Assembly (NCBI GenBank): GCA_044892525.1
Contig: CM097887.1
Span: 34,534,001-34,598,000, forward strand
Source of the DNA: Schmidtea polychroa
Lineage: Eukaryota
Direction: 5' to 3'
Length of the DNA stretch: 64,000 nt
This document shows positions 1 through 28,574 of the stretch, piece after piece. Positions within the stretch are counted from its first letter, which is position 1. Each line of letters begins with the position of its first letter. The notes beneath the pieces were generated by a model. The model ran no database searches. It was not told the origin of the DNA and was given only the letters and a program-made list of their open reading frames with translations. The translations under genes and the position numbers were made by a program.

Positions 1-432
1 TCTATCGTCTTTCGCTCTGTTTGAAATAATGTCTCGAACAATCTGTTCATCAGACATTCCAGGCCTAAATACACTTTTAACTAAACTTCTTACTCGTATT
101 TCGAAGACTTGGAATCTTTCATCTCTCTCTTGCTGAATTTGAGCTAGTTCCACAATCTTGTTAGTAATGGTTTTTCTTACTGTAAAAGTTTCTATAAACC
201 ACTCTTTTGCCATTTCATCGGTCATCTTCGCCATTTTCGCCGCTTCCCATAACATCGATGCCGCATCTGTCAACAAAAGATCCAATGCGTCTACTAGACT
301 TTGATCTTCTATTCTCAGCCATTCCATAATATCCTTTAGCCAAAGTTCGGCTTCAGATCCAACTTTTCCGTCAAACTTTCTGACATTAAAATTTAGCATC
401 TCACGTGCTTGTTTTGACAAGGAATCTAACAT
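1..432 (-). CDS. gag: Ty3/gypsy-type Gag, N-terminal part (runs off the window start)
   Basis: Open frame absent from the ORF track because it is open-ended: MLDSLSKQAREMLNFNVRKFDGKVGSEAELWLKDIMEWLRIEDQ...ELAQIQQERDERFQVFEIRVRSLV. It has the retrotransposon gag KFDG..WL and Q..DE motifs and lies just downstream of a PBS. The frame is also open to an ATG at 516. Confidence 0.8.
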   Translation of the reverse strand, partial: MLDSLSKQAREMLNFNVRKFDGKVGSEAELWLKDIMEWLRIEDQSLVDALDLLLTDAASMLWEAAKMAKMTDEMAKEWFIETFTVRKTITNKIVELAQIQQERDERFQVFEIRVRSLVKSVFRPGMSDEQIVRDIISNRAKDDR

Positions 433-473
433 ATTCTTAGTTCCTTTCTTTTTTCCTATCGCATTGATTTCCT

Positions 474-487
474 TGGCGTGGTCGCCA
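474..487 (-). promoter_or_regulatory. Primer-binding site TGGCGACCACGCCA (probably tRNA-Arg type)
   Basis: Begins TGG, lies immediately upstream of gag, and is identical over 14 nt to 28575-28588. It is complementary to a tRNA 3' end with a GACCACG acceptor stem and G discriminator. Confidence 0.75.
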
Positions 488-491
488 GTTA

Positions 492-744
492 TGATGTCTT
501 CAACTTCTAAATTCATAAGATCAATAATAAATGCAGTTAAAATATATTATCCAAAAAAACGCTAAAACAATATTATTAAAACAAACAACTTTCCATAACT
601 TATATAATTTATAATTTATAATGTTAAAAACAAATAATTTCATTTGTTTTAAAAAGTACATTAATAATTCATGAATTCATTAGTTCATAATAATTTTAAA
701 TTATTGTTTTAATTATATATCTTTATAAATTTTTTACTACACCA
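492..744 (-). repeat. Candidate short 5' LTR of the gag element (TGGTG...CATCA)
   Basis: TG...CA termini, a 4-nt spacer to the PBS and TATATAA near 601-608. The start TGGTGTAGTA fits the TGNTGNNGTA start of LTRs B and C. No partner LTR is in the window. Confidence 0.4.
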
Positions 745-4600: not shown

Positions 4601-4734
4601 TTCAGGAATGCGACACCCTCAATCACTGTACGAATCACCTCAAGCTTCTTACATCATTTATTCATCAACTTCTTTAACGCTATGTAACTACTACTTTTCT
4701 AGAAAATTTTCTATATGATTTAGTCGCACGTTCA
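1637..4734 (+). mobile_element. Long LTR, element A (about 3.1 kb, TGCTG...TTCA)
   Basis: Inverted homology to 14768-17492. Similarity begins exactly at TGCTG and both copies end TTCA, followed by a conserved leader. Confidence 0.65.
2178..2927 (-). pseudogene. LTR-embedded antisense ORF (249 codons, coiled-coil N-terminus), 4 in-frame stops
   Basis: Colinear 750-nt homologue of 16188-16937. Stops at 2844, 2784, 2688 and 2658 all align with Gln codons in B. Preceded by TTTTTACAG (2933-2941). Confidence 0.85.
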
Positions 4735-4865
4735 GCGACGGACCCGTGAGGAAGCCCCCACATTTCGGCCCGATTCAGCTGCGTGATTGAAACATTTCGC
4801 ACCCACCGGCTGAGCACCCGAAGGCTCCTCGCACCATGGTACGAAATGTTTCAACTCCACGTCCT
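4735..4865 (+). other. Conserved GC-rich leader at the PBS position of element A
   Basis: GCGACGGACCCGTGAGGAAGCCCCCACAT... is a close inverted match to 14638-14767. Confidence 0.7.
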
Positions 4866-5033
4866 CCAAAACTCGAAAATTCATAAAAACATTAATATCA
4901 AACATAAGTCATAAAAATCCTGAAAATAATACGTTTATTGTTAATCGATACATTTATACATTATCATTAATGAAATTAGGATCAAATGAAGAAAGTAGCT
5001 TAAATTTTTAATAGATTAATAAATAACCATAGA

Positions 5034-7630
5034 CAGCGCCGGTTCGAGATAATTATACGCCCCAGGCGAAAATTATAAAAATCGCCCTATTTTAAAAATT
5101 AGGTACAAAAATTATGATAAAATAAAAAAGTTTAACAAAAAACAATCCATTTATTACTTTATTTCATTTTTTTCGATTGACATATATATAAAAAAAACAG
5201 AATTTATAAGAATGATTTTTTCCTGGCTTTCATGTCTGCAAATTTTTCTATTGCTGCCTCCAAATTTAGGTTTGCTACAACATTATTTTCAATTGAAATA
5301 ATGGCCAAATTATTCAACCTATCTTCCGTCATAGTAGATCGCAAATACGTTTTTATTAGTTTTAATTTACTAAAACTTCTTTCACCACTCGTAACACTAA
5401 CAGGAATTGTTACGAGGATTCGTAAAGCCACCCACAGATTTGGTACTGTACTTTTCAAATTATTATCATTGATAAATTGTAAACATATTAAAGGATCTTT
5501 AACATCATCTGGTACCAATTGCTTCAATGATTCGATTTCCTCGCACAATTCTATTCCATTTATATCACTACTGGCCTCATTTGTTAATTTCAGATGTAAA
5601 TCTTTGCAACTCTTCAGCAAATCACAACGATTTTTATTATTGTGAATATTGAACAAAAAACCCCACGAATCTTCGAAATCTTTCATTTGCTGAAACCTTT
5701 CTGATATAGATATCAACGATTGATCCAGCATAACATTAAAAACATGATTTTTATAATATTTTTCTGGGTCATTTACATCTGGATTTTCATCGTCACACTC
5801 ATAACTAAATTGTTTTTGTCGCCTTCTGATTCTTACAGCTTTAAATTGTGCGTTCACGTTTAATAGCGCAGCGAGATCTTTGGCCGATTTTAAAGCATCA
5901 GAAAAACCGAAGTCTCTATAATTTTCTAGTAAAATCTTACAATTCCGAAGAAGCTCGATGGCGTTACTCATATCAAATGTAGCTTTTTGCAAGGATTAGC
6001 TGACAATATTAAATTTTGACAAAAGTACGTACCAGACAGATAATGTTAACAAAAACTCGAAATCTTCTATTTTTTCAGATAAAGAGCTAGCTTCTGAAAC
6101 AACTGCAGCATCTAATATTGTGTCTTGCAACTCATTTAATGCGTTTCTAATTTCCGTGATTTCAAACATAATTGCTTTAATGCATTCGATTCTACATTCC
6201 CACCTCGTTTCACTTAAAGGTTTAGGATTTAATGATTTAATATGTTTTTTCAATATATTCCATCGTCCAACAGATGCAGCAAACAAAGTATAAATTCTTT
6301 GAACATATCCGAAAAAATTTATGCACATTATTGAAGAAGAAACACTATCACCAATTAGTAGGTTAATTGAGTGACAACCGCAAGGCATAAAAAACGCTCT
6401 TGGATTTTCTTTTAAAATTCTAGCTTGCACTCCTTTAATTTTACCTTTCATATTAGCGCCGTTATCATATCCTTGGCCTCTACAGTTTGCTAATTCCAAA
6501 TTGAATTCTTCTAAACTTTCAGAAATATCATCATATAATCCTTTTCCAGTAGAATCAAAAACTGGTTTAAAGGATACAAAATGCTCTTTTATTTCCATAT
6601 CCTCAACATCATAAAATCTTAACGTTATGGAGAGCTGTTCGATATGGCTTATGTCAGGTGTGCAGTCTAAAATAATCGAAAAATATTTCGATTTACGAAC
6701 AGAATCCAAAATATGACTTCTTGTCATATCACCAAGTGTACTTATTAATTCGTTTTGTATAGTTTTTCCACAATAATGAACATGAATTTCTTGTGAGACC
6801 ACCCTGCGCAAATGCTCATTTAATGGTAAATCAAATTTTCCTAGAAGTTCAACAAGGCCTAAAAAATTTCCATTATGCGGAACAAATAACTTATCACAAG
6901 AACCCCGAAATGCTAAATTATTTTTTGACAAAAATAATGTTATGTTCATTAATCTTTCTAGTACCTTTTTCCAATTATATTTTTCTTGGACTATAAAAGA
7001 CTGCAAATTCTTATCAATAGTTTTATTGCCCTTTAATCTTAATCGAGTTTCTATCCAGTTTTTTTCACATTTTAAATGTGAAACTGACCGTTCGTGCATT
7101 TTCAAGCTGCCGTGAATATTTTTACAATCCCATAAACCAGATTTGGCTAGATTTGACCTTAGCTATGGCATAAATTTATATAAATATATTATATATTTTC
7201 CAATATATTTTTAAAAAATGATCTTAATCTTACCTTACCTCTTATATATTTATATTTTTAAAACAGAATAGGAATACAAATTTAATTTGAACAAACTGCA
7301 ACAACACAACACATTAGTTACACACTTGAAACAAAAAAATTGTTAAAAAAAACTGGTAGCTATAGCTGTTAATTTAACTCGCACATCAGTTTTTGTAATA
7401 CATACATATAATTTTTTTTTATTTCAATTTTCAATACATATCAGAATTTCTCAGAATTGGAAATTCGTATATTTTGCATGTACCTTTTTTTTGTTTTTTC
7501 TTATTTTCAATTTTTTTTAAAACGGTTGGTTTCATAGATAAATTTCAAAATATAAAGTTTTGGAGGCTTATTTTATAATTTACTTTGATTGTTTATAATA
7601 AATTTTGGCGCCCTCTAAAAAAAGGCGCCC
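5034..7630 (-). mobile_element. hAT DNA transposon (ZMYM1-like transposase), one end missing
   Basis: CAGCGCCGG terminus at 5034, GGCGCCC subterminal motifs at 7607-7630, and a transposase with LAFRG, DCTPD, RGQGYDNG and SGERSFSKLKLIK motifs. Confidence 0.85.
5204..7350 (-). pseudogene. hAT transposase, one premature stop (TAA at 5996-5998), with an upstream spliced exon
   Basis: The two track ORFs are in the same frame (NIVS*SLQK). A VLCCCSLF exon lies near 7240-7350 with a GTAAG donor. Confidence 0.85.
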
Positions 7631-8060: not shown

Positions 8061-8287
8061 TTTGTTTTAAAAGTTTTTTTTATTAAATTTATGAATTTTT
8101 TGAAATAATTTTAAATAAATTCAATTAATGTATTTCCATTCTTATCAACCTTCTTATCTATGCCAATTCTCAGTATTTACCTCTCATGATGTATGCGGCT
8201 ATAACGAAAATACACCCAAAAACACTCCATATACTACATTAATCAGGATCGAGACTAGACGAAAAGTCAAACGACGGAAACTCCACA

Positions 8288-9927
8288 ATGGATTGGGCAA
8301 CCATACAGCCAAACTTGGAAATGATCAGATTCATCTGCAAAAACGCGACAAAAGAAGTTGAAAACATCTGCAAAAATACATCCCAATTTCAGTGGAATAC
8401 GGTACGGAAAAATCTAGAAGCAATGAAATTATTACTAACATGGAGAGTACCGCACAGTAATAAATACGCGATAAACGTAAACGAATTTTATGAGAACGGC
8501 GAAAATGCGATGGTCAAAAATACATTAACTAAAGGGGGGACACCTAAAATTATACTAAGTGTATTAAATAGAGAAGACCTGAGATTCACAAGAAACCAGA
8601 ACGAACAACAACGAATTGGAAAATACCGCCGTATACAACTAAGAGAATTAGTAAAAGAATTGAACCGGAAAAGACACGCAGTAACCGGAAGGAAGGAATT
8701 CGAATTTGAGGCTAAATTAGCAAGAAACAGAGTACTGACAGCATACCGAAGATTGTTGAACGATATAAATGTCGAGGACGACATTTTAAACGACAGCGGG
8801 GGAGATAAATACGATGATAACGATGGAAAAGGTCGAAAGAAGGACAAAGAGAAAAGAAAACCGGAAGAGGATAACCCGGAAAATAAAGACCCAGGTACGG
8901 GAAAAGAGGGAAACAACCCGGAAAACAAGATGAAAGAGGAGGAAAAACCAAATAATGGAAAACAGAGGGTATGCCTACCTTTCACCAACAAAGAAATAGA
9001 AACAAATATGATACTAATGATAATTGTACTAACCATGATAGAGGTAGTAACAGCCCATGGAGGGACGAGAACGATAAAAGAGACCAAAGAAGCGGAAAAT
9101 CACAGGAGAGGAACTAAAGCAGGAAAAGAAAAAGCAAGTGCAGGAGCAACAATGGGATCTGAAAGAGGAATGGGATTTAAAGGAAAGATGTATACTAGGA
9201 AGATGCATGTCCCGAGCATATCAGAGATTAGTGTTGATAAACGAGGATACAGAACCGATAACGGAAGTAGGAATACAAGAAGCATACCAACATCGAAACA
9301 AAAAGAGAATAACGAAAGCCAAATGGAAAGAGGTGCACCTAGGAAAAGGAGGTGAAATAGTGATAACACAACTCCAACCAAGAAAAGAACACCGAGTTTG
9401 TATTTCAAGGCTAGGACCAGGAGAGAACTGCCTACAATATGTGACGCAGCAACAGCCACCAAAGAAATACACGGTCTGTATCTTGAGAAAAGGACCAGAG
9501 AAGGAATGCAGACGGTATCCAGGGAAAAGAGGAAAGAAAAGAAAAACTAATGACGAAGGAGACGACGAATGAAAACGCAAGAAAACCAACGAGAAAAACC
9601 AAGACAACTACGTATCAGAAGAAGAAATGGAAAAAATACGAAAAATGGCAAAAGAGGAAAAATCTGAAACAACGAGTACAGTGACAAAAAATGGAGACTC
9701 AGAGATCATCAGCGTAAAGCATGAATCAGCGGAATAATAATAACAGGGGCATTTTTAATCATAACGGGGGGAACAATAAAATCATCAAAGATAGACGACA
9801 TCGCGGAGAACTGGAGTTGACCAGAATCAGAAATTTTCAACATCGAATAAAAAGACCCAGTAAAATAAGTCAAGAGCAGTGGATGGAGACCTGGAGTACC
9901 CAGCGTCCCCCGAATCCACAAATATAG
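8288..9927 (+). pseudogene. Large accessory ORF of unknown function, broken into several frames
   Basis: Track ORFs 8288-9355, 9138-9572 and 9721-9927 overlap or continue in frame with the same A-rich codon usage. Confidence 0.55.
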
Positions 9928-10084
9928 AAAGGATTATGACTGTATATAATTGTAAAAAGTAAGTATATCTTATGTATATAACAGTATCATATTTTTATAT
10001 AAGCGCGGTATCATTAGTATATAAAGATCGGGAGAACCATATAAAATTAAATAAAACCAAGTTGAGAATGTATATAAATTAAGA

Positions 10085-10444
10085 ATGGAGCAAAGAAATA
10101 ACGAAATAAATCACAACACGACAACCGAAAATATGTGGAAGCAACAATGTGCCGTTTTAGCACAACCAGTATCTAGCCTACAAGAGCAAGGACTTACAAT
10201 GCAAAGGAACCTAGTTGATAGTCTAAACAAGGGATTTAGCTATTTAAAGATAATTGAGGATCAGAGGTCAATAATCGAACAAATGCAGAGAGAGATAGAA
10301 CGGATAACAAGATACAGCCAGAGACAGGAAGAAGAGTTAGTGAGAATGGCGGAAGAAGCAGAATACGAAGAGATGAAAGATTGGTCAGAATGGTTAATGA
10401 GCAGAGAAGAGGGCGGACAAGAGACCGACTCTTCTGAACCATAA
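10085..10444 (+). CDS. Accessory coiled-coil protein, 119 aa
   Basis: Intact ORF rich in Q/E heptads, bounded by AT-rich spacers. Confidence 0.6.
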   Translation: MEQRNNEINHNTTTENMWKQQCAVLAQPVSSLQEQGLTMQRNLVDSLNKGFSYLKIIEDQRSIIEQMQREIERITRYSQRQEEELVRMAEEAEYEEMKDWSEWLMSREEGGQETDSSEP

Positions 10445-10527
10445 ACAAAACCTAAACTAGATGTAAATAATGGTAAATAAAATATCGAACCTGTATCGAT
10501 AAGAACTATATGTATATAATTGTAGGC

Positions 10528-11832
10528 ATGGATAGACAACGAGGAGAGGAGTTTAACGAAATTATCGAGTTAGTCAGAAATTCCGCAGCAATCAGAATAC
10601 ACAAACATGTCATGTGCGGAATATGTGAAAAATTGTTAAAGGAACCCCATCAAACCAAATGCGGATGCAGATTGTGCAAAGAATGCATAAAAGAAACAAT
10701 AAAAAACAGACCACAGTGGTGCCCGATATGTAAAGAGACACTGATATCAAGTCTAGAAGATACTAACGAAGATAAAGCCGCAGTAAAGGACATGCTGAAC
10801 ACTAATCTAGGATGTAAAAATACCCCATGCGAATGGAGAGGATCGACATGGAAAGTAAAACAACACCTAGAGGAATGTTTGTATAGAGTCAGCCAGTGTG
10901 AGCGATGCCAGAAGATAATTCAAGCTAACGAGGAAAAGGAACATCAAAGCCAGTGTGAAGAGAGACTAGAAAGATGTGAATATTGTGGAGAAATAGACAC
11001 GTGGAAAAATCTCACCATCAAACATCACAATGTCCAAGAGGAAAAGGTATGTGTAGAATTCTGTGGTGAATGCCCGAACGGATGCAACAAGGGGGAAACA
11101 ATAAAAATAGCCCAGCATCTAAAAGAATGTGAAAGGAAAAGAATGATATGTGTATTAGGTAAATGGGGCTGTCAGAAATTACTACACAGAGGAGACTTAC
11201 CACATCATTTAACAGAAAATTTAATAACTCACGCAGAAATGTGGTCAACAAATGGAGACTGAAATAACCTCATTGAAGGCATTGATTAAAGAACTATTAG
11301 AAGAAAGAGAAGCATTCGAACAAGCTCGAGCAAACATAAAAATGCAAATAAATCGAATGGAAATCAGTAATGAGCAAGCCAAAGTGCTACATCAAAAAAT
11401 AACCGAAATAAATCTCAATGAAATACTGCCATATGGAAAATTACGGGAGTGAAAGAAAAAATACAAAAAGCAAAGACCGGGGAAGAGACAAGAATAACAA
11501 GTCCCGCATTCCTCTCTTGGAAGAACGGATACAAAGTGAAAATGAAGATATATCCTAACGGAGATGGAATCGGATTGGATACACACTTTTCGATCTTCTT
11601 CCTAGTATGTAAAGGGGAACACGACGAAGTAATAGAATGGCCGTTTCAGGCTAAAATCGATATCGCAATAATGAATGACCGAAGCATCCACGAACAAAGC
11701 TTCAAAACAACGGGAAATCAGCTAGCCAACCAAAGACCCCTGGAAGAAGGAGCAGCAACGGGAGCACCTACATTCATTTTGCAACAAAGGGTAGAGGATA
11801 TGGCGAGAGAAGGAAAGAGCAGAACCGAGTAA
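10528..11832 (+). pseudogene. TRAF: Intronless TRAF-family protein (RING, TRAF zinc fingers, coiled coil, MATH) with 2 frameshifts
   Basis: CGICEKLLKEPHQTKCGCRLCKEC...CPIC RING, CPNGC zinc finger, and a MATH domain WKITGV..ITSPAF..GYKVKMKIYPNGDGIGLDTHFSIF..GEHD..WPF. Frameshifts at about 11250 and 11430. Confidence 0.9.
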
Positions 11833-12025
11833 CGAGTGGGGATGATGTTGTATATAATAAATTTGTATATATCGGTGTATATAACCTATAAAATAGTATA
11901 TAATAGTAGTATGGGATCCGCAAATACAACAACCCAAAACTGAAGCGAAAAATCCAGGAAAAACATCAACTGAATAATAAAATCTAATATTGCGATAATA
12001 TTTAATTAGAATATATAATTTAGAA

Positions 12026-13046
12026 ATGACACAAGAGAAAACAACTGAAAGTACGACGACCCCAAGTAATGCAACCAAGACACAAATCCCCAGAGAATAT
12101 CATGAGAAATGGAACAAGGTGATGTTCCAATTAACCAACTTAACCCGCAACCACATCGAAGAAGCCAGGGAAGACGAGAGCAGTAGATATCGATGGTTGG
12201 TAAACAATCTGAGAACGGAAGCGGAAACATGTAAAAGGGCCGCACAATGGGCCTCGTTAGAAAATACTCGTCAAGAATCACATGTCACTACCTAAGGCAA
12301 CTGCTACAAGAATCGCGGAAAAGACTGACTGATGAGAATAAAAAACGAGAAACCGAAAAGCAAAAAGAGGAGAAAAAGATGCGACATCTATTGGCAGAAG
12401 CCAGGAAATGGAAACGACAGAGCAGAGAAAGGGAAAAGGAAATGAAGGAATTGCCTATGAGACTCAAGTACGAGAGCGAGCAAGGCAAATGGGAAGAGAA
12501 CCTAGTCATAAAAGAGGAACTAAAACGGTTAAGAAAGATTGCCGCCCGAAGTCAAACATGGCAAACCAAGGCCATAGAGTTTGAAAATAGGCTATGAAAA
12601 TCTCCATAAGAGAACATGAAAACGCAGCAATGGAAGAAATGATATTTCAGCAATCGGGACGAATCGTAGAATTAGTGAATAAAGTCGCCGAGCTAGAACG
12701 AGATGTCAATGGATACCAAGGAGCCCTGGAACAGCGAAACATGGTATTGACAGGAAAAAATAAAAAGCTGGAAAACGAAAGGAAAATGTATAGTAAAAAC
12801 ATTAAAAATCTGGAGATCGAAATCGAAAAATGGAAGGGCGATGAAAAGATAAAAGAACTGGACAGGCAATTAGAAGTGAAAGATGAGGAGACGAGATACC
12901 TCACCTATTTGCTCGACGAAGAGCTAAATATCACTCGAGCTCAACTACCCAACCTCTATACATCACAAAATCCTATAGCAGTCCACCTGAACCTGACAGT
13001 AGAAAGTGACGAGGGATACTGGGGTCAGGAAGAGACGTTTGTATAA
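12026..13046 (+). pseudogene. Long coiled-coil accessory ORF (about 340 aa), 2 frameshifts
   Basis: Track ORFs 12026-12295, 12247-12597 and 12594-13046 join by single frame changes. Confidence 0.6.
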
Positions 13047-13177
13047 TTGAAGTCAAAAGCAAAAAATAAAAATGGGAACTGTATCCCAACAAAAAAAAAT
13101 TAAGGGTATAAAATATGCTATAAATGTATAAGTATAAGCCGCATTGTAGCGCACTATTAATTATAAATATTATAGAC

Positions 13178-13798
13178 ATGAAGATTGAAGAGATAATAGA
13201 ACTCATGAGTGAAGTGGAAGGAGAGATTGAAGTGGAAACCACAGAAACACAAATACTAAAGAAAGAATTGCAGGAAGAGAAACGAGAAAACGAGAGACTA
13301 ATAATACATGGGAGACCGGAAAATAATTAAAGTACTAAAGAAAGAGTGCAAAGTACTAGGAAAAGTAAAGAGGGAAGCGGAAGAGAAAAATGAATGGTTG
13401 CAAGAACAACGAACACGAGGAAGAAATTGGGAAAAGATAGAGCAAGCTTCAAAGCAGAAGAAGTAATCCAAGACTATTGGAAAACAGAAGCGCAAGAGCG
13501 CCAAAGAACCATAAATAAATTAAACCAACAACTGAAAGAAAAACAACAGGAAAGTGAAGAAATGAAGAAATGGAGTCGCAAGTACGAAGAGATGGAAATG
13601 CGACATCAACAACAGCAGCGACAAAGAGGCAATGATCAGGAACCTGAACAAGATTTCCTACAAATCGTGTTAGAAAGAAATCTCGACAAAAAACGGGAAG
13701 AAATAAAAAAATTGAAAAAGGAGATACGACACCTGAAAAGAGAAGCCCGTGAAAAAGATCGGCAGTTAGAAATGCTGCCCGAATTAAGCTTGAAGTAA
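13178..13798 (+). pseudogene. Coiled-coil accessory ORF, frameshifted; homologue of 30166-30537
   Basis: RASFKAEEVIQDYWKTEA versus GASFKANEVIEDYWKTEA, and DFLQIVLERNLDKKREEIK versus DFLQLELRRNLEKKRKEIK. Confidence 0.75.
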
Positions 13799-14176
13799 GT
13801 TCAGTATGCAATTGCGGGACGCAATTTTGATGGGTCCCCGAGTGATTTGTTGGGCTGAGTCGAAGGGTATCTAAGAAATTAGGTTAAGCATAACTAAATT
13901 AAAATAAAAATAAAATAAACAAATTTACGAATAAAATAGAATAAGATATAAGAAAAACAATAATTAGAAAATAAGAATTAAAACAAAAAAATATAAAAAT
14001 AAGAAAAATTAAAATAGGACAACAGAATGACAAAAAATAACGTAAAATGCAGTAAATAATATGGAAATTAAAGAAAATAAATAAAAAATACAATAAAAAT
14101 AAAGAAAATAGGAAGAAATAACTAAAAAACAAGAAAAATAAATTAAAGCAATAAAATTAAGCGGTACTCAATTCTG

Positions 14177-14401
14177 ATTGGTCCGCACACATCAAAAATT
14201 ATTATATAGGCAAACGCAAAAATTATAAACTTACAGTTAAACCAAAAACTTTACAGACAACAGCGACCTACAGGAATTCGATTCAGAAACCAGAAACATT
14301 AGCACGTCGGCAGTTAAAAATCTACTCAGACTTCAACTAATACTTAATTCGATCCAGTACCTTCCGACTCAGCCTATAAATCTATTCAAACCCTTAGTAA
14401 G
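14177..14401 (+). promoter_or_regulatory. Antisense promoter (ATTGG 14177, TATATA 14203) and GTAAG donor (14397)
   Basis: The same three elements occur in the same order in element C (29207, 29189, 28905). Confidence 0.5.
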
Positions 14402-14767
14402 GACATTTTATTTTTTTTATCTTTGATTTATTTTAAACGGTTAATAATGATCATGTATATTTGCGAAATAATTAAATTTATAATTTGAAATGATTTTCTT
14501 TTCGTTTGATTCCGTAATAATGGGTAATTTATTAAATAATTTAGCTGCTTAATCGTAATCACTAATAATGAACGAGTTTTTCTAGATTTTTGTAATTGTT
14601 TTTATGGGTTATTATTTCATGATTTTAATCTCACGAGGAACGTGGAGTTTAGACGTTCCATACCTTGGTGTGAGGGACCTTCGGGTGCTCAGCCGGTGGG
14701 TGTGGGACGTTTCAATCACGCAGCTGATTCGGGCCGTAATGTGGGGGCTTCCTCACGGGTCCGTCGC

Positions 14768-17492
14768 TGAAGGGCACTCTAAAATGTCTCTGGAATGATC
14801 AGAAAGAAGGAGTAGAATCAATCTAATTTGTAGGAAAAGTAATAGCAGCGAATCACAGTGACTGAGCGAGTCAGAAGTCTTCGTATCTACAATAATTCTT
14901 CAAACTAAAATTCTCGTAATCTGAAAATTTAGTGTCACCGTCAACCGTAGGTCTAGATCTGTCATTTTCGTTAATAGAGTAAGCATCATCTGTCTGTAGA
15001 TTATTCCTTCACCTCGAAATTGCCACTCATACTCTGTTCCAACAATGAATGTAGTTTAAAAACCCTTATTCCGGTAGTAGAATAGCTATGTAGTGGAATA
15101 CCATACAATCATCAATATACAATCGAAAAACAAGACAAAATATGCAAAGACTTTTATTTGATTACATAAAAGGAAAACAAATTTCGACATACTTACCTAG
15201 AGATAGTGCATAAAAGTTCATATTTATATAAATTCCGAGAGGGTCGATATCCACGAGTTGAGATCGGTGCATGTATCTTGAATAATTGAATAATTCATCC
15301 ACGAAGCAATATATCCAACAGTTACGACGAGAGAGAATTTCCTAATTTAATTTTTCTGATGGACAGCAATCCAACGCAGTGTGAGGTAACATCTGAAAAT
15401 CCACGCAACATGTGAATCGGATTAAAATTCCATGGAATGAATACACACGCATACACGCGCAGGCACATATTGTGAAGTCCAGTAAACGGAACCCGTATGA
15501 GAATACCCATCAGTGATAACACTATCATGACTAAGCATAATCGCGCGAAAATAATTTTCCATGCATCACATGCATTAGAAATTTTGGTTATCTAAGAACA
15601 GTATGTAGACTCGCAGCGAATAATTATCATGAGAAATCATACCTGGTGCGTCGGGTGTAGTTTCAACTAATAGATAAAATCACTAGTCGTAAACAGATTT
15701 CACACCAGCCACGGAAAATCGACAGCAGGCAATTTGCCATTTCAAGTCCACATCGTTGGATTTTCTAAAAAATTAACGTTTATAATTAATAATTAATAGT
15801 AATTGATTTACCTATCTATCTATAAAATCCGCATATTGAAGGATTTCCGTTTATAAATTAGCCATGTATTTTAGTCTGAGCTCCTCAATGCTATTTACCA
15901 TTTTCGAGGCAAACCCAATTTGTAATAATTCCATAAACATGTAATGTTCATTTTCAACAATAATGCGTTACCTCCGTTTGACAGTCACTTGTTGCCGGTC
16001 AGTTTTCTTGTAAGTAAATAATCCCGAGGGAATGAATATCGATGAATCCAACGAAACTCCTCTTGCTAGCTACCTGTTTCTTTTCTATAGGAATACCTAG
16101 TTGACGAATAATTGTGTCGGGATGGTGACATTATAATTTGGTTTATCTTATAATTTTAGTTCTATCTTTTCTTCTTAGCCATCAGATATGTTACCCAATT
16201 CAAGACCTGTTCTCAAACCCTGTTTTTCTTGTTCCGACAAGAATGCAATAATCAAGGACCTCCAGACTCAGATCGGACGGTACAAAAAGAAAATAGACGA
16301 GTTAGAGGGGACCTGGTTTAGTCCCGCTCAGATGAAAGAAACTCAGAAAAAGTTACACCGAAGTGAACATTGTCGGGACGCTCTAATCTCCGAGAGTCTG
16401 GCCCAAAGAAGCTTGATAAAAGAGCAGTCCGAGGCGCTGCATAAAGTATATATCCAGGCAGCGGCCACTAGAAAGATGGTGAAAATCCCCATCGGCGACG
16501 CCGAGAATCTCTTTCCGGCACACCATGATACATCTGCCAAATCGTCGCCCCCTCCAAAAAGGTCTTGCCGGCCGTGCGTAGAAGCCCAACTCTCGTCGGA
16601 TCCACATGAAGTTGTTTTTGTTGGACATAGTCGAGTACTGCCTAACATCGCCTCTACTTCGGCGGCAGCCCCGAACAATGCATCGACCGCAAAGCCCAAG
16701 CGTCGGCAGTTATCCAGGGCCGAACGTAAAAAGAAATAGCGTGAGCGAATAGCTGCGAAACAACCCCAGCCCCTGCCGGATCTCGCGAGTAAAGACAATA
16801 ACGTCCCTGCCACAATTGACCTAACAACAGGGACACCAGGGCGAATCATATCTGCCGCTGGGGTAACGTGGGAGGAAAACGCCTCCGAATTCTTTGATTT
16901 GGACGAATTACTCGCCGACTCTGAGTGGGAAAAATGAGAATTTGCCCGTGAAATGACCTCATCCTTGGGAGAGTCCTGAATCAACTAATATCGTTTTTCT
17001 ATTACTGCGTTTTTCCTTATTCTAATTCTGTTGTATAAATTATTGACGCGTCTGTAGTGTAATGTTAGAAATAAACAATTTTCGTCTGTATAGGTGTTTT
17101 GTTTTTCGTTCATAAGAGATTTAACATTGAGTGGTAAATAGCATTGAAAGTCTCTGAGATTCGAGGAGTATTGTTCAATTTGCAATCCAAACCAAAGGTA
17201 TGGCGATGGGGTGACAAAATAAGTAGACGTAAGTCTTTCTATCGGCAGTCAGGGGTAGGAAGTCGAGGCCACAGTAAGGAGTAGTTCGAAGGTGATGGCT
17301 CACCTGCTTACTGGTGTCTCACCGGCATAGCACAGTTCCAACGTGAAGTGATTCACGGGTGCTATGTTGGAGTGTAGGTTATGTACGGGTCCTGCTCGAG
17401 GGTGACGAAATCGACGAGCGTAATCGAAGTGGGCATTCATCCTCTAGACTAAAAGTGGAACTAAAGGTGGTCATCCGAGTAGTACCCCAGCA
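14768..17492 (-). mobile_element. Long LTR, element B (about 2.7 kb, TGCTG...TTCA)
   Basis: Homologous to LTR A, with TG/CA termini at the homology boundaries. Confidence 0.65.
16188..16937 (+). pseudogene. LTR-embedded antisense ORF (249 codons), one stop at 16737
   Basis: The frame continues after TAG as RERIAAKQ...GVTWEENASEFFDLDELLAD and matches copy A. Acceptor TTCTTCTTAG ends at 16178; AATAAA at 17070. Confidence 0.85.
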
Positions 17493-17789
17493 TAATTTTT
17501 GGGGGCTCAGCCGGGATTTAGATTGAAATTTCCGTTGACTAGTGAGAACTTCACCGGGATTTTTGAATTTAATTGATTGATGAATGCAAATTGACTAATG
17601 CTTACCGAATCTTATCATAAAATTACGATTAGAAAATAATAAAATTAAAGATATAAATAAAGTTAATTTAATAATGGGGAAATAAGATAAAAGTAAAATA
17701 AATTATAACGATTTTAAAAAGGAAAATGTTTGATGAAACAACCATTAATTAGCTGTATATTATTAAGACATTTTCTTTTCCCAACAGAC

Positions 17790-18266
17790 ATGACGGAATT
17801 CGCAGAACAGATGCAACAATTAATCAACTTCATTGATATAGAAAACGATCCCATAAAAATGCTTATACACAAAAGAGAGAGGATTAAGAGCATACAACTA
17901 CAAACAATGGGACAAGCACCAGTCGTACCTAACCATATGTCAATAGCCATAGGTCTAAGTCGTAGAGATGGTAAAGTAAATCACGAAACAATATATCAGT
18001 GGTATCAGGAAAGATTGAGACACCCTGCATTGAATCTAGAATATCATCGACTACGAGATCAATTAGATACTATACCCGACATAATTGAACAGAAGATACA
18101 AGAAAAACTCACTAAATTACGAACCTGTCCGTCTTGCAATCTTCGTCCTATACGCGTACTGTTCTTACCTTGTGGACACCTCAGTCACTGTGAAGAATGC
18201 GTGAACGATTTAAAACGATGTATGATATGCAAGTATGAGATAAACTTTGAAACATTATATCATTGA
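17790..18266 (+). CDS. Protein with a C-terminal IAP/XIAP-type RING finger (C3HC4_3), 158 aa, no BIR domain
   Basis: CPSCNLRPIRVLFLPCGHLSHCEECVNDLKRCMICK. The ATG at 17790 follows the acceptor TTTTCTTTTCCCAACAG. Confidence 0.8.
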   Translation: MTEFAEQMQQLINFIDIENDPIKMLIHKRERIKSIQLQTMGQAPVVPNHMSIAIGLSRRDGKVNHETIYQWYQERLRHPALNLEYHRLRDQLDTIPDIIEQKIQEKLTKLRTCPSCNLRPIRVLFLPCGHLSHCEECVNDLKRCMICKYEINFETLYH

Positions 18267-18325
18267 AACATTATACATCTTAATGTTAAAAATTGATATT
18301 TTCTTTAACCGTATTTAGAAAAACA

Positions 18326-18393
18326 CCCACGGGCATTTGAAAAAGTCTCCACGGGCACTTTTTTGCCCGCGGGCTCTAGGTTGGGCACCGCTG
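18326..18393. mobile_element. hAT (Charlie-type) element end
   Basis: Ends GGTTGGGCACCGCTG and has repeated CCACGGGCA subterminal motifs. Confidence 0.5.
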
Positions 18394-18980
18394 AGATAAA
18401 GGAAACTCATATGGTTTATTATGGTGAATGAAATTGTTAAAGATACAATAACATCTATGAACATCGAATTAATATTGACGATTGAATATGAATAAATGTA
18501 GTCTTTGTGTGAAATACTATTAAAGCTTGAATTTTTATTTATTTTGTGGCGAATAAAATTTGGTTGTGAACTGAGTAGTTTATTGTTTTTATTTCTATTT
18601 TTAATTTTTGGATCAAACGAAAAGAAAAGTAAATTAACGTGGAATTAGTCCCAATATAGGCTGTAGGAGTACAAACCGAGCCACCTTCGGGCGGTACGTT
18701 CTATCATAAAGAAAACCAATTGGGAGGGGATAACCGATCAACCTAAGTGAGGAGCGTAGGGCGAGGTACCATCGCAAATGATAAAAAGTTTCTACGGTAT
18801 GACTGATCACCATGCCAATGTAGAAATGGATCATCGCGATCGTTTTGTGTTTTGAGCAAGGGGGAAAAGGGGAACCACTAGCGGTAAAGATTAAGTTGAC
18901 AAATTAAAAGTAGAGAGATAATGTAGAGTAAAAGAGGAAAGAAAGAAGCAGAAGCATGCAGAATGAGAAAGAATAAGATC

Positions 18981-19127
18981 GAGTTGTGAAAAGGTCCAGC
19001 CGGTCAGGGAAATTAAAACTGAGTTGTGAAAAGTCCAGCCAGTTCGGAGATATTAAGACTGAGTTGTGAAAAGTCCAGCCGGTCAGGATAATGAAGATTG
19101 AGCTGTTGAAAAGTGCCAGCCAGTCGT
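18981..19127 (+). repeat. Tandem repeat, 40-bp unit, about 3.7 copies
   Basis: GAGTTGTGAAAAG(G)TCCAGCC at 18981, 19021 and 19061, with a degenerate copy near 19100. Confidence 0.9.
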
Positions 19128-19140
19128 AAAGGCCTAGAAA

Positions 19141-19339
19141 AATAGTGAGATTTATTGCTACTAGTGAGAAGGCATTATGCCTACCGAAAAATAGCGTTAA
19201 GCTAATAGTGAGATAGCATTTATTGCTACTAGTGAGAAGGCATTATGCCTACCGAAAAATAGCGTTAAGTTAATAGTGAGATAGCATTTATTGCTACCAG
19301 TGAGAAGGCATTATGCCTACCATGAAATAACGTTAAGCT
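19141..19339 (+). repeat. Tandem repeat, 68-bp unit x3, with internal hairpins
   Basis: Units at 19141, 19204 and 19272: AATAGTGAGATAGCATTTATTGCTACTAGTGAGAAGGCATTATGCCTACC... Confidence 0.9.
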
Positions 19340-21339
19340 AATAATAAGACAGAATATTAAAGCTAGCTAGAAATGAATTGAATTAGATACGATAATTTGA
19401 AATTAGAGAGGATTAAACGAGCTCGTGGAAGGGGACGATAAAATTCTTTTAGAGAGAAAGAGAAACAGAAAAGGAAAATAAATTGAGATAATGGAAAAAG
19501 AATAGGTGGGAAGAGATGATGAGCAAAGAGGAAAATAAGTAACTAATTAAAGGGATCCTAGTGAAGTAGACACTCTACAGAATATTTTTCGTTTAAACCG
19601 GGGAAATACATTTTATTGGTTCCAGAGTAGAATCGAGTGAGAATAATAAATATAAAAGGATAAGTAAAGTAGCGACAATAGCGCAAAAGGATTAAGAAAA
19701 TAAGGGGGGGGGGGTAATAAGCAGTTACCGACGACGACCTATTCATATTATAATTGATAAAGATAGATAATTATTACGACCCTATAGATAATTGTTACTA
19801 CCCCATATAGATAATTAAAAATCGACGAAAAATACGGGCTGATGGGAAATTATAACCCGCGGAAGTGATTGCCAAAATAGGGGAAGCATAAACAGAGACC
19901 TAACCGGTGACTGTGTTTGAATGTTGCAGAAAGAATGATGAAGTCGTGTAAGCAGATGCAACACGAGATCATTTTTTCATTTTAGATACCAAACCAATCC
20001 AGTCCATTAAGCCCATCCAGAACCTGCACAAAGGGAATTCAAAGAAACCAACAACCAATCAGCGATAACCAATTCAGAACCCGCTCAGCAGGAATAACAC
20101 AACCCGAAGATTTCAAAAAACGGAAGACGATACAGATAACGACATCTCCAACTTCCAACGAATCACAGATATATTCAGTCTCGTTGTATTAGCAGCAATC
20201 AGCCAAGGACTCATAAACCTCCTCAGAATATCATTAGCAGAATCGTATAGAATACAGACACTCATCACGCGGCTCCGGACTCGGTACATCTGGTACCGGA
20301 TTCATGATTGGAACCGGGGCTGAACCTGGATAATTACGGCCCGGTTATCCGGAGTGGCCCAGAGCCCGACGCCCCGGCGTGGGTGAAGACGGAGCCCACT
20401 AATGACTTGTTGCGGGTTAGGGAAAAGTCGAGAGAGTCCGAGGCCGCTCCACGATCCTGAGGGGTGATTGAGAGTGCGACCCCTCCTGGGTAAAACAGAC
20501 ATTGTAACATTGTAGTATCTAAATAAATAATTTTCATCATCTGATGGGTATGTGATTGAATCTTGTGATTGTCCAGAACAAGGCGGTTGACAGAAGGGTG
20601 TTTGGGAAAGCAATCTCGATAAGGGACCGAAATAAATCGGACACATGCCTTCTAACGGCCGTCCATGAACCCATAGAGTTCTCGACAATTATAGCGCTCT
20701 TAAGGCGATCACTTTTTGCGAGTACTCAACCCCTTGGTACAGTACCAACGTTGATTACTCAACGGGTACCAAGCGGAAAATAATGTTGTATTCTGGGTTA
20801 CGCTGGTAACAGCACTAAATAATAATTGTTCGGACACCTGTAACCCACCAATGTAAACGTCTTATTTGATGATTTCGCACGGAATCTACTTTGACTAATT
20901 GTCAGATTTTAAATTCTTTCGCTACTCAGCCCCGTAAAGTAGATTCGTTTGATCGATTTTCATTTGCTATTTCTCTAATTTTTCCGGTTTCCTTTGATAA
21001 ATTTATTAATTTTAATTTATAATCAACAGTGTTGCTTTTAACTTTTTTACCCTAAACAAGATGGTGATGACAACATTTTTATTTTCTGGAATTATTTTTA
21101 TTTAAAAAAAAATTTTTCAATAAAAGTTTTATTTGACATAAATTTATCAGCATTAATAAAGATATACCAAGTGAGAAGAATAATTTTAAAAATTGTTTTT
21201 TAATTGATTTTTGATAAAATTTAGAGAATCAACTTTTTTGTGACCTGGAAAAATTTAGGTTAAAAGAGATAACAAATATGCCTCAATATTTCAATAAATG
21301 TGTCAATTTTGAATTTCAAATCCTATTTTTTTAATATTG

Positions 21340-22393
21340 AAAATTTATTTTATTATCTGTATTACCAAGAATTTCGTCATTGATTTTGTAAATGCCTGGA
21401 TTATAAATCATGAAAATCATGAGCCAAAATTATTATTGTTGACTTCAAAGATGATTCACCCTGATGATATTCTTATATTCTATATTTTGAATAGTCTCAT
21501 GTTAGTTGCTGTACTTATCATAAATTGGTTTAAGTTTTATTTCCTCATTTATTGGCGATTTACTGGGTGATTTATTCCATACTCTGAACAGTTTTTGTGC
21601 CACTTCTGGATAAAACTGAATTGCCGCTTTCAGTTCTTTATGTTTTAAAAATAATATAAATTTACTAACACATCAATAGTTTTCTTAATGGTGGTCATTG
21701 AAGAATCTCTAATTTTATTATCTGAAGCATTAACAAAAATTTCGTCATTGATTTTGTAAAGGTCTGGATTATAATTAATTTCTTTTTGAATCATACAGTC
21801 ATCGTCCAAATTTTGCATACTAAATTTTTCTAAATCTGGGTAAAACGTGACGCTGGTGAAATCATTGTCCTCACAATCACTGATAATTCTCTCATATTTT
21901 TTACTAAACGTTTCTAGCGTAAATTCCTTGCTAAAGATGTTACATAATTTAGCACCATAGCCATTTCTGCCACCGGTAAATTTTTTTAGAAATAAGTTGA
22001 GGTTTCCACCTGTCCAAATAAAATCTTTGTTAAATAATCATCGAAACCTTTTTCCTTTACAGCAAGGATTCCTTTCCCATTATTCCAAATTCTAATCATA
22101 TTATTTGGTCCATTTATATCTATCTTAATGCAAGACATTTCAGGATCTCTTATTTTATTATCTGAGGCATTTACAAGGATCTCATCGTAGATCTTGTAAA
22201 TGCCTGGATAATATATAACTTTTTTTTCAATCATACATTTATTTTCAGAATCGAAAATCCATAAAAATTTTTCTTCTGGCGTTATTGAACCAATATAATA
22301 ATTTTGTATCAAAGCAATGTGTTTTAACTGAGTCTCTTTCTGAAAAACTTTTTCAATTGACTCATTTTTATCCAAAAACTCGTCTGTAGCCAT
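21340..22393 (-). pseudogene. TOP2: DNA topoisomerase II 5' fragment, deleted and internally duplicated
   Basis: MATDE..IEKVFQKETQLKHI, YPGIYKIYDEILVNASDNKIRD, WNNGKGI, TGGRNGYGAKLCNIFSKEF and VTFYPDLEKF motifs. The YKI.DEI block recurs at about 21720-21790 and 21350-21410. Confidence 0.9.
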
Positions 22394-22452
22394 TCTATTT
22401 ATTTTCTAAATATTTTAAAATATAAACTTAATAATAAATAATTACTTATTAT

Positions 22453-25400
22453 TAGAGGTCTACCGATACATGTTTTTTTCGGATATCGCCGATATGAATA
22501 TATCGGTAAAGTTTTTTTGCCGATATGAGTATATCGGTAAAATTTTTCCTGTTATAATGGCTAAAATTGTTTGGGAAAAGAAAAATTACATATCATGGAA
22601 AATATTGTATATTGTATTTTACGGAAGAATCTAAATATAAAACCTGAAACAAAAGTATAGACCTAACCGGATAAACTCAATTATATTCTAGCACGATAAA
22701 TATTTGATAAACAACCGGAACACACAAATAGAGCAGATATTTAATAAATTGACCATTTTACTTTTTTGTTTTATATTTAGCTCTCGTACAAACCAGAAGT
22801 TTAAAATGGGCTTGAATTGCATATATTTTTAAAACTAGAAATCTAATAATTATATATTACTGTTTTGAAAATATCGATATAACGCCTATTTTTGAAACAT
22901 TTCATATGCCAACTTGGTTTAAAATGAACAATGTCTATTGATAAACAGTTATATGAAAGTATTTACCTTTAATAGGCTTATAAAAGTTTACCATGTATAT
23001 AATGTAAACTATACCAACCGTAATTGATAGGCGAAAAATTTGTGTCTAGTATCACAAACACTGCCTTTTAAAACTATAATTTTCTCTTAAACTTTACATA
23101 TTTTCTTCATTTTTAAATTTAAACATGAAAAATACAACCCTTATTTCTTCCGTTTTTTGAAATCTCTTTCGGAACTAATAAAGTATTCTGATATTAAAAA
23201 AAGAATAATTATTCGCTACACTAAAAACAAAGAAAAGAAAACATTATAAATATTTTTTTGTGAAAGTCATTTAAACTGTAATACGTGTTGTTGAATATGA
23301 TACCTTACAATATTCACCCTATATTTTGTTTCCGGGTATTAGAAATTAACTATTTTATTGATATGCGCATTACAGCAGGGTGTATGTTTCAGCAACCGAC
23401 GAAGCATTGTAAGCATGGGCAGTATTAATGATGCAGATGTCGACTTAGCACTTACCTCTTTTGTTATTTCTTCAAATGGATATAAAACATCAATAATTCC
23501 TTCCACCAAGAGCCACTGCGTTGGTGTTAGTGTCTGTATGTTATGCTCAACAGCATAGACTCCTAATACCAATTTTTGCTCTTGAATTGATTGCAACATA
23601 TGCAACGAAGAATTCCATCGTGTTTTTATATCCTGTACAAGTTTTTTTCTGCCATTCTCATCTTTTTGTGTATTGCTTGTAATTTATGTTGAGCAACAAT
23701 CGACACAGAAAAAACGATTTTGCGTGAAATTAAAATAATATCGTTGACAGCATCTTGGGTAAGTATTACGTCAAATATTACTAGTTGTAAGGTATGAGCA
23801 AAACAAGACATTCCTTCAATTTGCGCAAGTCTCAAGCCTTTAACAATGTTTGGCCCGTTATCCCTCAAGCATACATGTGCTCGATCCAAGCCAATGTTGA
23901 AGTCAGATAGCATCATAGTAGGCTTTCGAGGATTGTACTGGAAATCAAATGAATAAATTTTGGTTAGTTTCATCACCCGTCGCTTGAGACCACAGCCATA
24001 GGGCAGAATGTTTATCAATGAAAATAATATATCATTCTCCAAAGTATGCCGAATCGATGCGACGACATTAAATACATAGACGACAATTCCTATTGAATGA
24101 CATGATTTTTCGGCATTTAAATTCAACTTTGTCATTCGCATTGGAACACGGATTTAGTTTAGTTTATATGGAGATTATTTCCTCATCTCAACATATTGTT
24201 TTTTGTAGCCGAGATCGTGATACGAACGCGAGATTTGTAAAAGAGATGAGAGTAGAAAAACGGTTACTCAATCTTGGGGCAAATCATGATGACTCGATAT
24301 TCATTGACTTTCAATTTCAATCATCATTATAATCCACACAATAGATAAACTATTGTTTCCGACAACATTTAGTGCTGAATGTTTCGTCCATGTATTATGG
24401 TTAAACTCTTTTGTTGGTTTTCGAAGTTCCTCGTTTACTGCTTGGTATATTGCAGTAAACCTGTCATTGAAGCTCCTTATGCGAACTCCATCAGCCGAGA
24501 AAACTTTAGTCCTTACTCCATTTTTCATTTTGCTGATCATACTTTTGATGGGGTTTAAAAATGTACTATATGGAGGCAACTTTTCGATTTGATTATTCAA
24601 TGAACATACGTTATTATGGATGGATGTATTATCGTTGATTAAAATGAATCCAGATCTAGATTTGTTGGTACATTGTTATAAATCCGATTGCCTACTCGTG
24701 ATCTACCGAATCTCTTGTTCGTGCATGTATTAAATGAGTATTCATCTAAACAATTAGATTTACTGCTCACTCAATATCATTCAAGCAGACGTGTAACACA
24801 TGTCTGCCGAATATCTATTATTCTATTTGGATTCCTTTCTTTCACACAAGGCCTGATCCTTTTAGAAGCTATTAAATGATTATTTATGTATCTGGAAATT
24901 GTCTTTGTTGAACTTTGATTTGTTGCTAAAAAATATTTCAATTGGTTTAATGTGGAAAAATAATTTCTTTCGATATAGTCGAGTAATTTCTGTCCAATAA
25001 TTGTTGTAATAATTGTTTGCCTTTTCTTGTTTTTGGGGATAAATTTCCAATCTTTCTATATTTTATTATGATACTTGTTACAGTGTTCCCTTTAATAACG
25101 AGAATATGGCTTAGTTCGTAATAATCATGGCCATCTTCCATTGCATTAATAATCATTTTTTATCAGCAATGGTTACTCTAGATAGATATTTTATAAAATA
25201 ACTAAAGTTTATTGAAAAACTCACACATTTCTGTGAATTTCTTGAAATAAAATAATCGATTCAGAAGAAGCATCTGAAATATTCTCATACGTGTTTATAT
25301 TTAATTGTTTTAAATTGAAAAATTTAGCTTAATGGTCTCGATTAAATGGTCCATAAGCTTATTCAATGTCCAATTGTGTGTATTTTTGTAGACTTTTTGT

Positions 25401-25870: not shown

Positions 25871-25949
25871 AATAGTTATTCTATCTTTTGAATAGTCTCA
25901 TGTAAGTTGCTGTACTTATCATAAATTGTTTTAAGTATTATTTGCTTTC

Positions 25950-26132
25950 GAAAATCATGAGCCAAATTAATTACTGTTGAATTCAAAGATGATTCACCGT
26001 GATGATATGCTAATTTTCTATCTTTTGAATAGTCTCATGTTAGTTGCTGTACTTATCATAAATTGGTTTAAGTTTTATTTCCTCATTTATTGGCGATTTA
26101 CTGGGTGATTTATCCCATACTCTGAACAGTTT
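25950..26132. repeat. Direct copy of 21412-21594
   Basis: About 180 bp near-identical, with a further partial copy at about 25870-25935. Confidence 0.85.
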
Positions 26133-27207
26133 ATGGAATTCATTTTCGTCATTGACACTTGGCTCTACTAATGGATGTGGTGTCTCTATCGTTTTTTCTA
26201 CCATAGTCACTATAATGTTATGGTCTAATGAGTTTACCCAATGGTCAATTAAAGTTTACTGTTTATCAATTATCTTCCATTAAATTGACAATTTTCCTAA
26301 TTCATTTCCCTCAATCTTTTTTTTGCCATTTTGCCTTTATCATTTGCTTTAATTTATTTAGGTTAGTGCAGGCATGTATCTTCTACTTGGACACAATTGT
26401 ATTAAAAAATGATTATCATTTGATTCAACTGTTACTATTAATGCTTCGTGTAATCTTTCGTTTTTCCTCACTTATTCTCCATAATATTTTAACATCTCTT
26501 TTATCTCTATTTCTAATTCAAACACTTTAGGCACATTTTGTCTTTTACTAATACCGGTATCAAATTCCTTGGTCTCTTTATGTCAATTCCACTGACCTGT
26601 AATAATTATTACTCTCAAAGTTTCATTATCGTCATACCGTTACTTATTTAACGCTTTTTTAATTCATCTTTTAAGTTTTTACTAACTGGAAATAGCTTTG
26701 AGGTCATGTAGTGGTCTCTTCCGTATGTCAGAAAATTGGGAATCCTCGCTCGTTAATAATAATTTCTAGCATTTTACATCAGTAGTCAGCGAAATCTAAA
26801 CACATTAACTATAAAACAACATCATACATACATGCTAGTGACCATACCAATACTCATTGAAGTCTCAAGCATTTCAGTTAACTCATTCACGCCACTACAG
26901 GCCTATGGAAAAAACAACGGAATCCTTCACACCATTCTATCTGTTCATAGCAATCTTAAATTTATCTTCGGGGTCGACAGTTTACCTTTAAATTCATCAA
27001 CGTTTACTTGTATTATTATTTCCCTCTTTATGTCACTATATGACGCTCTATATTTGGTCTAATTTTCAGGGTTTTCCAGTTAGTTAATTAATTAAAACGC
27101 GATAAATGTTTCTTGGCATTACACTAAATCGAGTTATTTAACATGAAATGTTCAAGTTATTAAATTTTAAGTCATTTATTTAATTTATCAATTTCCTTAA
27201 TTTAAAT

Positions 27208-28574
27208 TGTTGCCGTAGCTCTCGTCATAGCGACGCGGCAAATTTAGCAACGAGGTGTTGACATCTCTTTAGAACGGTGTTATGTAGGTCACAAAAATAT
27301 TATTCTCACGTCGTATACTTTTTTCAAGATTTGTTTGTGCAAAGCCAACTGCACTTCTAAGAGTTCAGCCCTTTTTCGGATAGTTGTAGACGATTTATTT
27401 AATGCACGCTGCCTCGACATCTCGTTGGCATGCTTAGGTACGGAAGATATCAACTTGCTCATCTATCCCTGTGTGTAATATATGCCTGTCGGGGTGTGAA
27501 TGGATTTCCCCCAACTTATATCATCGTTACATAACTCTCTGTGTGTTCATTCATCGTGAATTCTAGCGTATCCGCATGTATGTGTTCTCGTGATTACCTA
27601 ACCCGGGTAGTAGTGTTCATTATCAGACGACATCGGAGGAAACGAGTAATCATCTCACTCATAATAAGAAATATTTTTAGGTTATCAAAATTCAGTCTCG
27701 ACGATAATTTTCCGATTTTATTAGAAATCACCAATTCTAATCAGCTTATTTTCTGTGATCTGTCATTCACTACCCGGACTATAATTATCATCATCTACTG
27801 CCGTCTCATCGTCTTAGTGTAGCTAGCAGCTGATCAACCAGACATCCTACAGATTATTTCCCGAGACGTCCAAGCAGGATTATCACTCCAGACTAGGGTA
27901 AGAAATTTGATTTATTATCGCGCGATGTTTACCTTACTGTCAGGCAAAATACTTATCACCGATAACGGTGATTCAAGAGCGACAATCAGTACTAAAAGTG
28001 CATCGACGATGGATCTAACTGCTAACGACTCTACCTATGGAAAATACTGGCCGAAGAAATTTGGTCTCTTAATTCCGTCATTCGCCACGAAAATAGAAGG
28101 CTTTTTTGGAAATAATCTGGTTCTTTGGCATCGCTATCTATCGAACGTCTAACTCAACCGTAGCACTCTCCTAGTAGAGATATTCATCCAAGACTCGTGC
28201 CTGACGACCTCAAGGCTTAACTGAAGTATGGGGAAACCTTCGTCAATCTCCCTTCTATGGATATTTATTCTAATTGCCCATCAATAGCAAGATACAGTGA
28301 TCTAAATGTCCTCGTAGGAAATTCTCAATGTCGAAAAGGAGTTTCGCAATCCCACTCGATGGAAGGATCAAAAAATACTCTGCCTCTCCGGGTTTCTTCA
28401 CCCCTCGCGACACACCGAAGGATGTTACACATTTCTGCCCACTACTCTTGGACCGTCGCGGAGGACCAATCGACCCACATCATTATAAAACAATTCTCAA
28501 TCAGTATGGAAAATACTCGAATTTATCAGACAATTATAAAATATTAAATGTAATGTTATAAATAAAGGTTTACC
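27208..28574 (+). mobile_element. 5' LTR, element C (about 1.4 kb)
   Basis: Starts TGTTGCCGTA at an abrupt GC shift. CCAAT near 28466, TATAAAA near 28484 and AATAAA at 28561, then the PBS. The 3' end reads TTTACC rather than CA. Confidence 0.6.

Follow-up and report, generated by a model that had tools for sequence, protein, structure and literature searches.

Giant gypsy-like LTR retrotransposons have been described from Schmidtea mediterranea as Burro1/GYPSM1 and Burro2-4 (Jurka 2007; Grohme 2018; as described in PMC6431247), and the motifs of Burro/GYPSM1 given there are MATH_TRAF_C, BIR, BCL2 and RING. The same paper reports a Burro-like element of Dugesia tigrina, in which MATH_TRAF_C lies in a separate accessory ORF upstream of ORF1. 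TRAF/MATH cargo of planarian giant retroelements is thus already published (2007/2019), and the core idea pursued here is already known. Another cargo product, the B-IAP of Burro1 (Lee et al. 2026, Dev Cell), protects stem cells, according to a second-hand statement in PMC13465017.

On the host side, planarian TRAFs are required for cell survival, and TRAF-like contigs are mostly partial (PMC7586133). The planarian TRAF expansion amounts to 121 MATH domains (PMC6109357), and it has been read as a matter of host immunity or regeneration, its significance being called unresolved (PMC8807557). Passages of PMC6109357, PMC8807557, PMC7586133 and PMC7958881 on the subject draw no transposon link to the expansion, and those of PMC8532177, PMC11410931 and PMC13238120 contain nothing further on TRAF cargo. 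In such passages and in literature listings we found no paper tying the expansion to Burro-like elements, a point that Grohme 2018 or Lee 2026 may already state. Element-borne TRAF copies may inflate the reported expansion, which would need a recount if many planarian TRAFs are element cargo or debris. Next to the Burro1 IAP, the locus described here would supply a second cargo gene that manipulates the host.

We examined a window of DNA, the whole stretch of 64,000 nucleotides analysed, whose GC content is low. We consider it probable that its TRAF gene is a dead copy of an accessory gene belonging to a family of giant, Burro-like LTR retroelements, the host being a planarian-like flatworm; that the TRAF is element cargo at all is very probable. 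The gene lies in three pieces.

10528..11262 (+): TRAF piece 1, RING and five zinc fingers, with the first frameshift close to its end
11228..11452 (+): TRAF piece 2, a coiled-coil-like helix in a different frame, between both frameshifts
11422..11832 (+): TRAF piece 3, the MATH/TRAF-C domain, ending short of its last beta strand

The frame of piece 1 starts at ATG 10528 and encodes 244 aa, with N-terminal structures of TRAF6/TRAF5/TRAF2 as its best PDB matches (E 5e-15). The RING occupies residues 30-68 of this ORF (Pfam zf-C3HC4, E 1.7e-4) and has all 8 of its 8 ligands, Cys replacing the usual His. Beyond the RING, five zinc-finger ligand patterns are all intact and align to the fingers of TRAF6/TRAF5; Pfam zf-TRAF gave no score on this piece. 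Piece 2 is predicted to be a single 52-residue helix, homologous to the corresponding coil of a full-length relative, P0004. The MATH domain (11422-11829) is matched by Pfam (E 2e-21) and by TRAF2 (E 1e-21), and its fold resembles TRAF3/1/2 in Foldseek with TM ~0.8. TRAFs work by trimerisation through coil and MATH and by ubiquitination through the RING.

In frameshift-aware alignments, nine relatives are all colinear with the window TRAF. P0004 residues 32-454 run colinear with 10597-11819, leaving no room for an intron. The TRAF at 10528-11832 is thus real and intronless, with a RING, five zinc fingers, a long helix and MATH. A sequence-only reading had called it a complete intronless TRAF; the architecture and the lack of introns stand, but completeness does not, because the last MATH strand is missing. 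Vertebrate TRAF2/3/5 and the planarian Smed-TRAF-2A/B (PMC7586133) share the domain order and the MATH fold, but the window TRAF differs from them in sequence (~30-37% identity), in the Cys-for-His RING, in its element-type composition and in three lesions. The intronless state itself is weak evidence for capture, because the window also holds a host gene that consists of a single 2-kb ORF.

50004-52010 (+): Na/H exchanger (NHE), 668 aa, single ORF, intronless host gene

Nearly all named matches of this exchanger, among the best 120 listed, are from flatworms, at ~40-50% identity. The exchanger thereby places the host among flatworms, and with the low GC and a primer-binding site that fits an S. 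mediterranea tRNA, a planarian is likely.

Upstream and downstream of the TRAF, the following features lie on the same strand.

8200..14200 (+): A-rich, strand-skewed block holding the TRAF; AT skew mostly +0.3 to +0.6, abrupt left end
8288..9355 (+): 355-aa ORF, function unassigned
9941..11903 (+): three spacers flanking the TRAF and the ORF upstream of it, with TGTAHATA and GTATATAA sites, eight of each and some of them overlapping
10085..10444 (+): 119-aa charged ORF immediately upstream of the TRAF
12026..13046 (+): series of broken, charged ORFs that resemble coiled coils, downstream of the TRAF
13394..13798 (+): ORF with a homologue at 30540-30208 (-); pN/pS 0.26 (CI 0.17-0.38)
14175..14256 (+): promoter-like stretch, candidate U3/R boundary; CCAAT-like, TATA-like, then a 17-nt motif
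14235..17496 (+): LTR-like segment without the skew, a candidate R-U5, with an inverted homologue at 4992-1632 (-)
16188..16937 (+): ORF with one internal stop, lying in the LTR-like segment; pN/pS 0.24 (CI 0.18-0.31) against the inverted copy
17500..17519 (+): primer-binding site (PBS); TGG together with 17 nt exactly complementary to the 3' end of a tRNA
17790..18266 (+): 158-aa ORF directly after the PBS with a C-terminal IAP-type RING; best PDB matches cIAP2, cIAP1 and XIAP
18970..19353 (+): internal tandem repeats, 40/79-nt and 68-nt units
19702..19714 (+): G-rich polypurine tract, candidate PPT, the only one in the window

The homology between the LTR-like segment and its inverted copy ends at 17496, and the PBS starts 3 nt on. 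The primer tRNA is a proline-type entry of S. mediterranea in Table S1 of PMC7962491, and 0 of 100 shuffles match. Its row is labelled ARG-ACG, but PRO-CGG_tRNA_1 has the same body and an end with a single base different. ARAGORN detects no tRNA within the window. 17496/17500-17519 is an LTR end with its primer-binding site, in an orientation in which the TRAF is sense. The LTRs claimed by the earlier reading are borne out to the extent of this one end with a PBS, but not as a pair: direct repeats with a target-site duplication are absent from the window, which holds only an inverted, diverged copy.

Segments near the TRAF are repeated in the window at 69-88% identity, and these repeats stop short of the TRAF itself. 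Between copies, the ORF at 16188..16937 and its counterpart at 2918-2181 (-) are under purifying selection, and so is the ORF at 13394..13798; pN/pS is given because dS is saturated for both ORF pairs. As two neighbouring ORFs show such selection, the accessory ORFs of the family were functional. The ORF at 16188..16937, whose class is unassigned, is preceded by a pyrimidine tract and AG.

Within the LTR-like segment, a GC-rich block at 14635-14771 (+) is 88% conserved against 4731-4866 (-), whereas the ORF common to the copies is only ~70% identical. A second conserved block lies at 17225-17409. Both blocks are possibly packaging or other RNA signals; Rfam gives no match over the whole window or over 13800-21200.

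The TGTAHATA and GTATATAA sites, eight of each, compare with 0.5 and 0.3 expected, and 0 of 2000 shuffles reach these counts. We take them to be Pumilio-element-like or TATA-like; the CCAAT-like and TATA-like boxes at 14175..14256 are likewise named by us from consensus. A bacterial promoter scan returned nothing informative. Of 8 ORF starts, 6 have a YAG no more than 9 nt upstream, compared with 33 of 160 other ATGs (p=0.002, post hoc), a pattern suggestive of separate spliced mRNAs. The short ORFs of the block 8200-14200 are on the same strand as the TRAF and have no Pfam match. For the 355-aa ORF at 8288..9355, Atlas gave only ankyrin look-alikes of low recognition, which were dropped as a lead.

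Compared with Burro1/GYPSM1 and Burro2-4, the locus shares the flatworm host, the LTR element, the MATH_TRAF_C/RING/IAP-related cargo and the internal tandem repeats. However, the MATH of Burro1 is inside a 4,873-aa polyprotein, whereas here a stand-alone RING-ZF-coil-MATH gene lies upstream of the LTR end and PBS. The Burro gag-pol polyprotein, with gypsy RT/IN and in-frame env, is also absent here: gag, protease, RT, integrase and env have no match among the 299 scanned ORFs (of 521 with at least 40 aa; the scan passed over short ORFs and the majority of ORFs antisense to known genes). As for the apoptosis/ubiquitin cargo of Burro, the locus has the TRAF and the IAP-type RING, but Pfam finds no BIR in the ORF 17790..18266 and the scanned ORFs show no BCL2 domain. 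The D. tigrina element is alike in its separate MATH_TRAF_C ORF, a comparison made by its published description, which comes without the full domain content or the LTR position. With the polyprotein missing and the comparison to Burro made by description, we file the locus as Burro-like, not Burro.

Composition ties the TRAF to the element. At its four-fold sites (n=120) there are A 67, T 12, G 18 and C 23, which does not differ from the element ORFs (p=0.61) but does from the host NHE gene (p=2e-6) and from hAT transposase (p=3e-6). Together with the PBS, the LTR end, the candidate PPT, the repeated neighbours and the strand bias, this codon bias supports the earlier proposal that the gene is retroelement cargo.

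A full-library search gave 1762 matches, 150 of them listed; word-index homologue searches were insensitive, with 1 match for piece 1 and 4 for P0004 including itself. Element-like biased residue make-up is found in 10 of 153 relatives, 9 of them in the group of the window TRAF. A tree built from 45 of the 154 proteins by a quick search without bootstrap unites the window TRAF and seven relatives in a clade with SH-aLRT 97, and two more, including P0004, join at 90; shared composition may attract branches here, with P0002, P0003 and P0033 flagged. The group is nested within TRAFs that have the Cys-for-His RING but an ordinary composition. All seven clade relatives are truncated or mis-joined, with an intact MATH domain in 0 of 7, a broken state as expected of decayed repeat copies. 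From their composition we infer an element origin, and this clade of biased, broken members agrees with the earlier suggestion that the TRAF is multi-copy. When the non-TRAF heads and tails of six relatives were compared with the other ORFs of the window, the sole sensible match was the P0011 tail to the MATH end. P0004, a full-length TRAF of 469 aa whose composition is element-like, branches as the sister of the broken clade and is a candidate intact element-borne TRAF.

Where in the element did the TRAF sit? The TRAF-bearing remnant is truncated and lies within a nest of hAT and Tc1-like fragments. A further copy of the family is found in the window.

5204-7162 (-), 43970-44440 (-), 46281-46505 (+) and 24304-25159 (-): pieces of hAT transposase, with a remnant of Tc1/mariner type
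26900-30547 (-): third copy of the family, more distant than the others; it has a homologous ORF, an additional ORF of another kind at 30048-29548 and a duplicated promoter motif

The 17-nt motif of the promoter-like stretch recurs in this copy at 29096-29159, within the stretch 29096-29215 (-). With close to an even chance, the TRAF would belong to the 3' accessory region of an upstream, gag-pol-deleted element, in tandem or nested with a second element that supplies the PBS. Consistent with such an arrangement, the strong coding-strand A skew ceases at ~14200, at the promoter-like site, transposon fragments are nested in this region, and the third copy has a different ORF beside its promoter. 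Against it, the interval from the TRAF to the LTR-like segment shows no PPT.

In another placement, the TRAF block would be the U3 of a very long LTR (at least 9 kb, left end lost), the 2.2 kb from PBS to PPT a non-autonomous internal region, and 19715 onward the start of a truncated 3' LTR. The TRAF is upstream of the promoter-like site and the LTR end, and the five spacers between 9928 and 14240 contain no purine run of at least 11 nt; the only G-rich tract comes after the PBS, and the A skew returns after the PPT. On the other hand, the A-skewed sequence past 19715 has no match upstream or elsewhere in the window, a PPT between TRAF and LTR end may have been deleted, and the Burro sizes in PMC6431247 (internal at most 25 kb, total >30 kb) imply shorter LTRs. 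We hold this placement as tentative, somewhat below an even chance. A bolder form of it is doubtful: an LTR of at least 9 kb would hold a cassette of accessory genes, a full TRAF E3 ligase among them, expressed as spliced subgenomic mRNAs with Pumilio-type spacer elements, and the amplification of such LTRs would account for much of the TRAF expansion in planarians and leave TRAF genes in solo LTRs.

With the TRAF as cargo of a Burro-like element, the following history can be proposed. Long ago, an ancestor of the element would have taken up the spliced mRNA of a host TRAF; the captured gene would then have acquired the A-rich strand bias of the element and been copied along with it, kept by selection while spreading. 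In intact copies, the TRAF may be made from its own spliced mRNA, as the YAG before most start codons would allow, though this step is weaker. The intact protein would be a trimeric RING E3 ligase and adaptor acting on host TRAF/MAPK survival or innate-immune signalling, and it may keep element-bearing stem cells alive, alongside the IAP-type RING protein of the element. Because host planarian TRAFs are needed for survival and the Burro1 IAP reportedly protects stem cells, a survival function is our best guess, at a little short of even odds. B-IAP is alike as a captured apoptosis regulator, its counterpart here being the IAP-type RING of the ORF 17790-18266, but no BIR is found with it. In vertebrates, it is through the BIR that TRAF2 is bound. 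As none is found in the IAP-type ORF, direct pairing of TRAF and IAP is unsupported here.

The TRAF cargo could instead be a neutral passenger or a dominant-negative decoy. In the alignment, the segment facing the TRAF2 serine cluster, which has a role in receptor binding, differs, and most relatives are broken. Against this, RING, fingers and MATH core are conserved despite a long-shared element codon bias, and a full-length biased relative exists in P0004. We hold this reading as unlikely.

Nor does the origin of the gene look like that of a single processed pseudogene, the case named beforehand as fatal to the cargo idea, or of an intronless host TRAF paralogue, lying by chance among transposon fragments. 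It is true that no second TRAF copy exists within the window, that intronless host genes occur here, and that the RING His-to-Cys change is common to host-like TRAFs (19 of 76 matched proteins, with normal composition). However, the codon bias differs from that of the host gene, there is no poly-A tail at the TRAF (longest A run 5 nt), the TRAF and its neighbour are flanked by the same spacer motifs, and the clade has several broken members. Because an element-type codon bias goes with a grouping among seven biased, broken relatives, a lone processed pseudogene is disfavored, and we regard either variant as quite improbable.

The cargo TRAF of this locus has no uninterrupted reading frame. Eight of nine relatives place the first frameshift at 11236-11263, and all eight relatives that reach that point place the second at 11385-11450, so both frameshifts reported from sequence alone are located. 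The added claim that nothing else breaks the gene fails, as a third lesion ends the MATH frame early. The stop at 11830-11832 comes 23 residues past the G-x-P-x-F motif, where the median of relatives is 35 (n=25). An alignment to the 147-position MATH profile reaches only position 126-127, whichever frame is used, and the last MATH strand of the relatives has no counterpart in the window copy. Mini-introns as the cause of the frameshifts were rejected, the GT..AG span at the first break being only ~14 nt. The copy is most likely dead; at most, its possible product is a RING and zinc-finger fragment without the MATH domain. The decay is recent, since all zinc ligands are retained. Long-read assemblies may contain indel errors, and the conserved zinc ligands would suit a gene intact in the animal, but three separate lesions, broken adjacent ORFs, a truncated element and an unbroken 2-kb host ORF in the same window make assembly error very improbable.

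Other fragments and repeats also lie in the window.

1-546 (-): fragment resembling gag on the edge of the window, matching Arc1 capsid only weakly (E 0.7)
753-1211 and 21345-22448: inverted copies of a further repeat family

Weak HATPase and topoisomerase-like Pfam traces occur at 21989-22405 (-) and 25879-26034 (-), with the repeat family of 753-1211/21345-22448.
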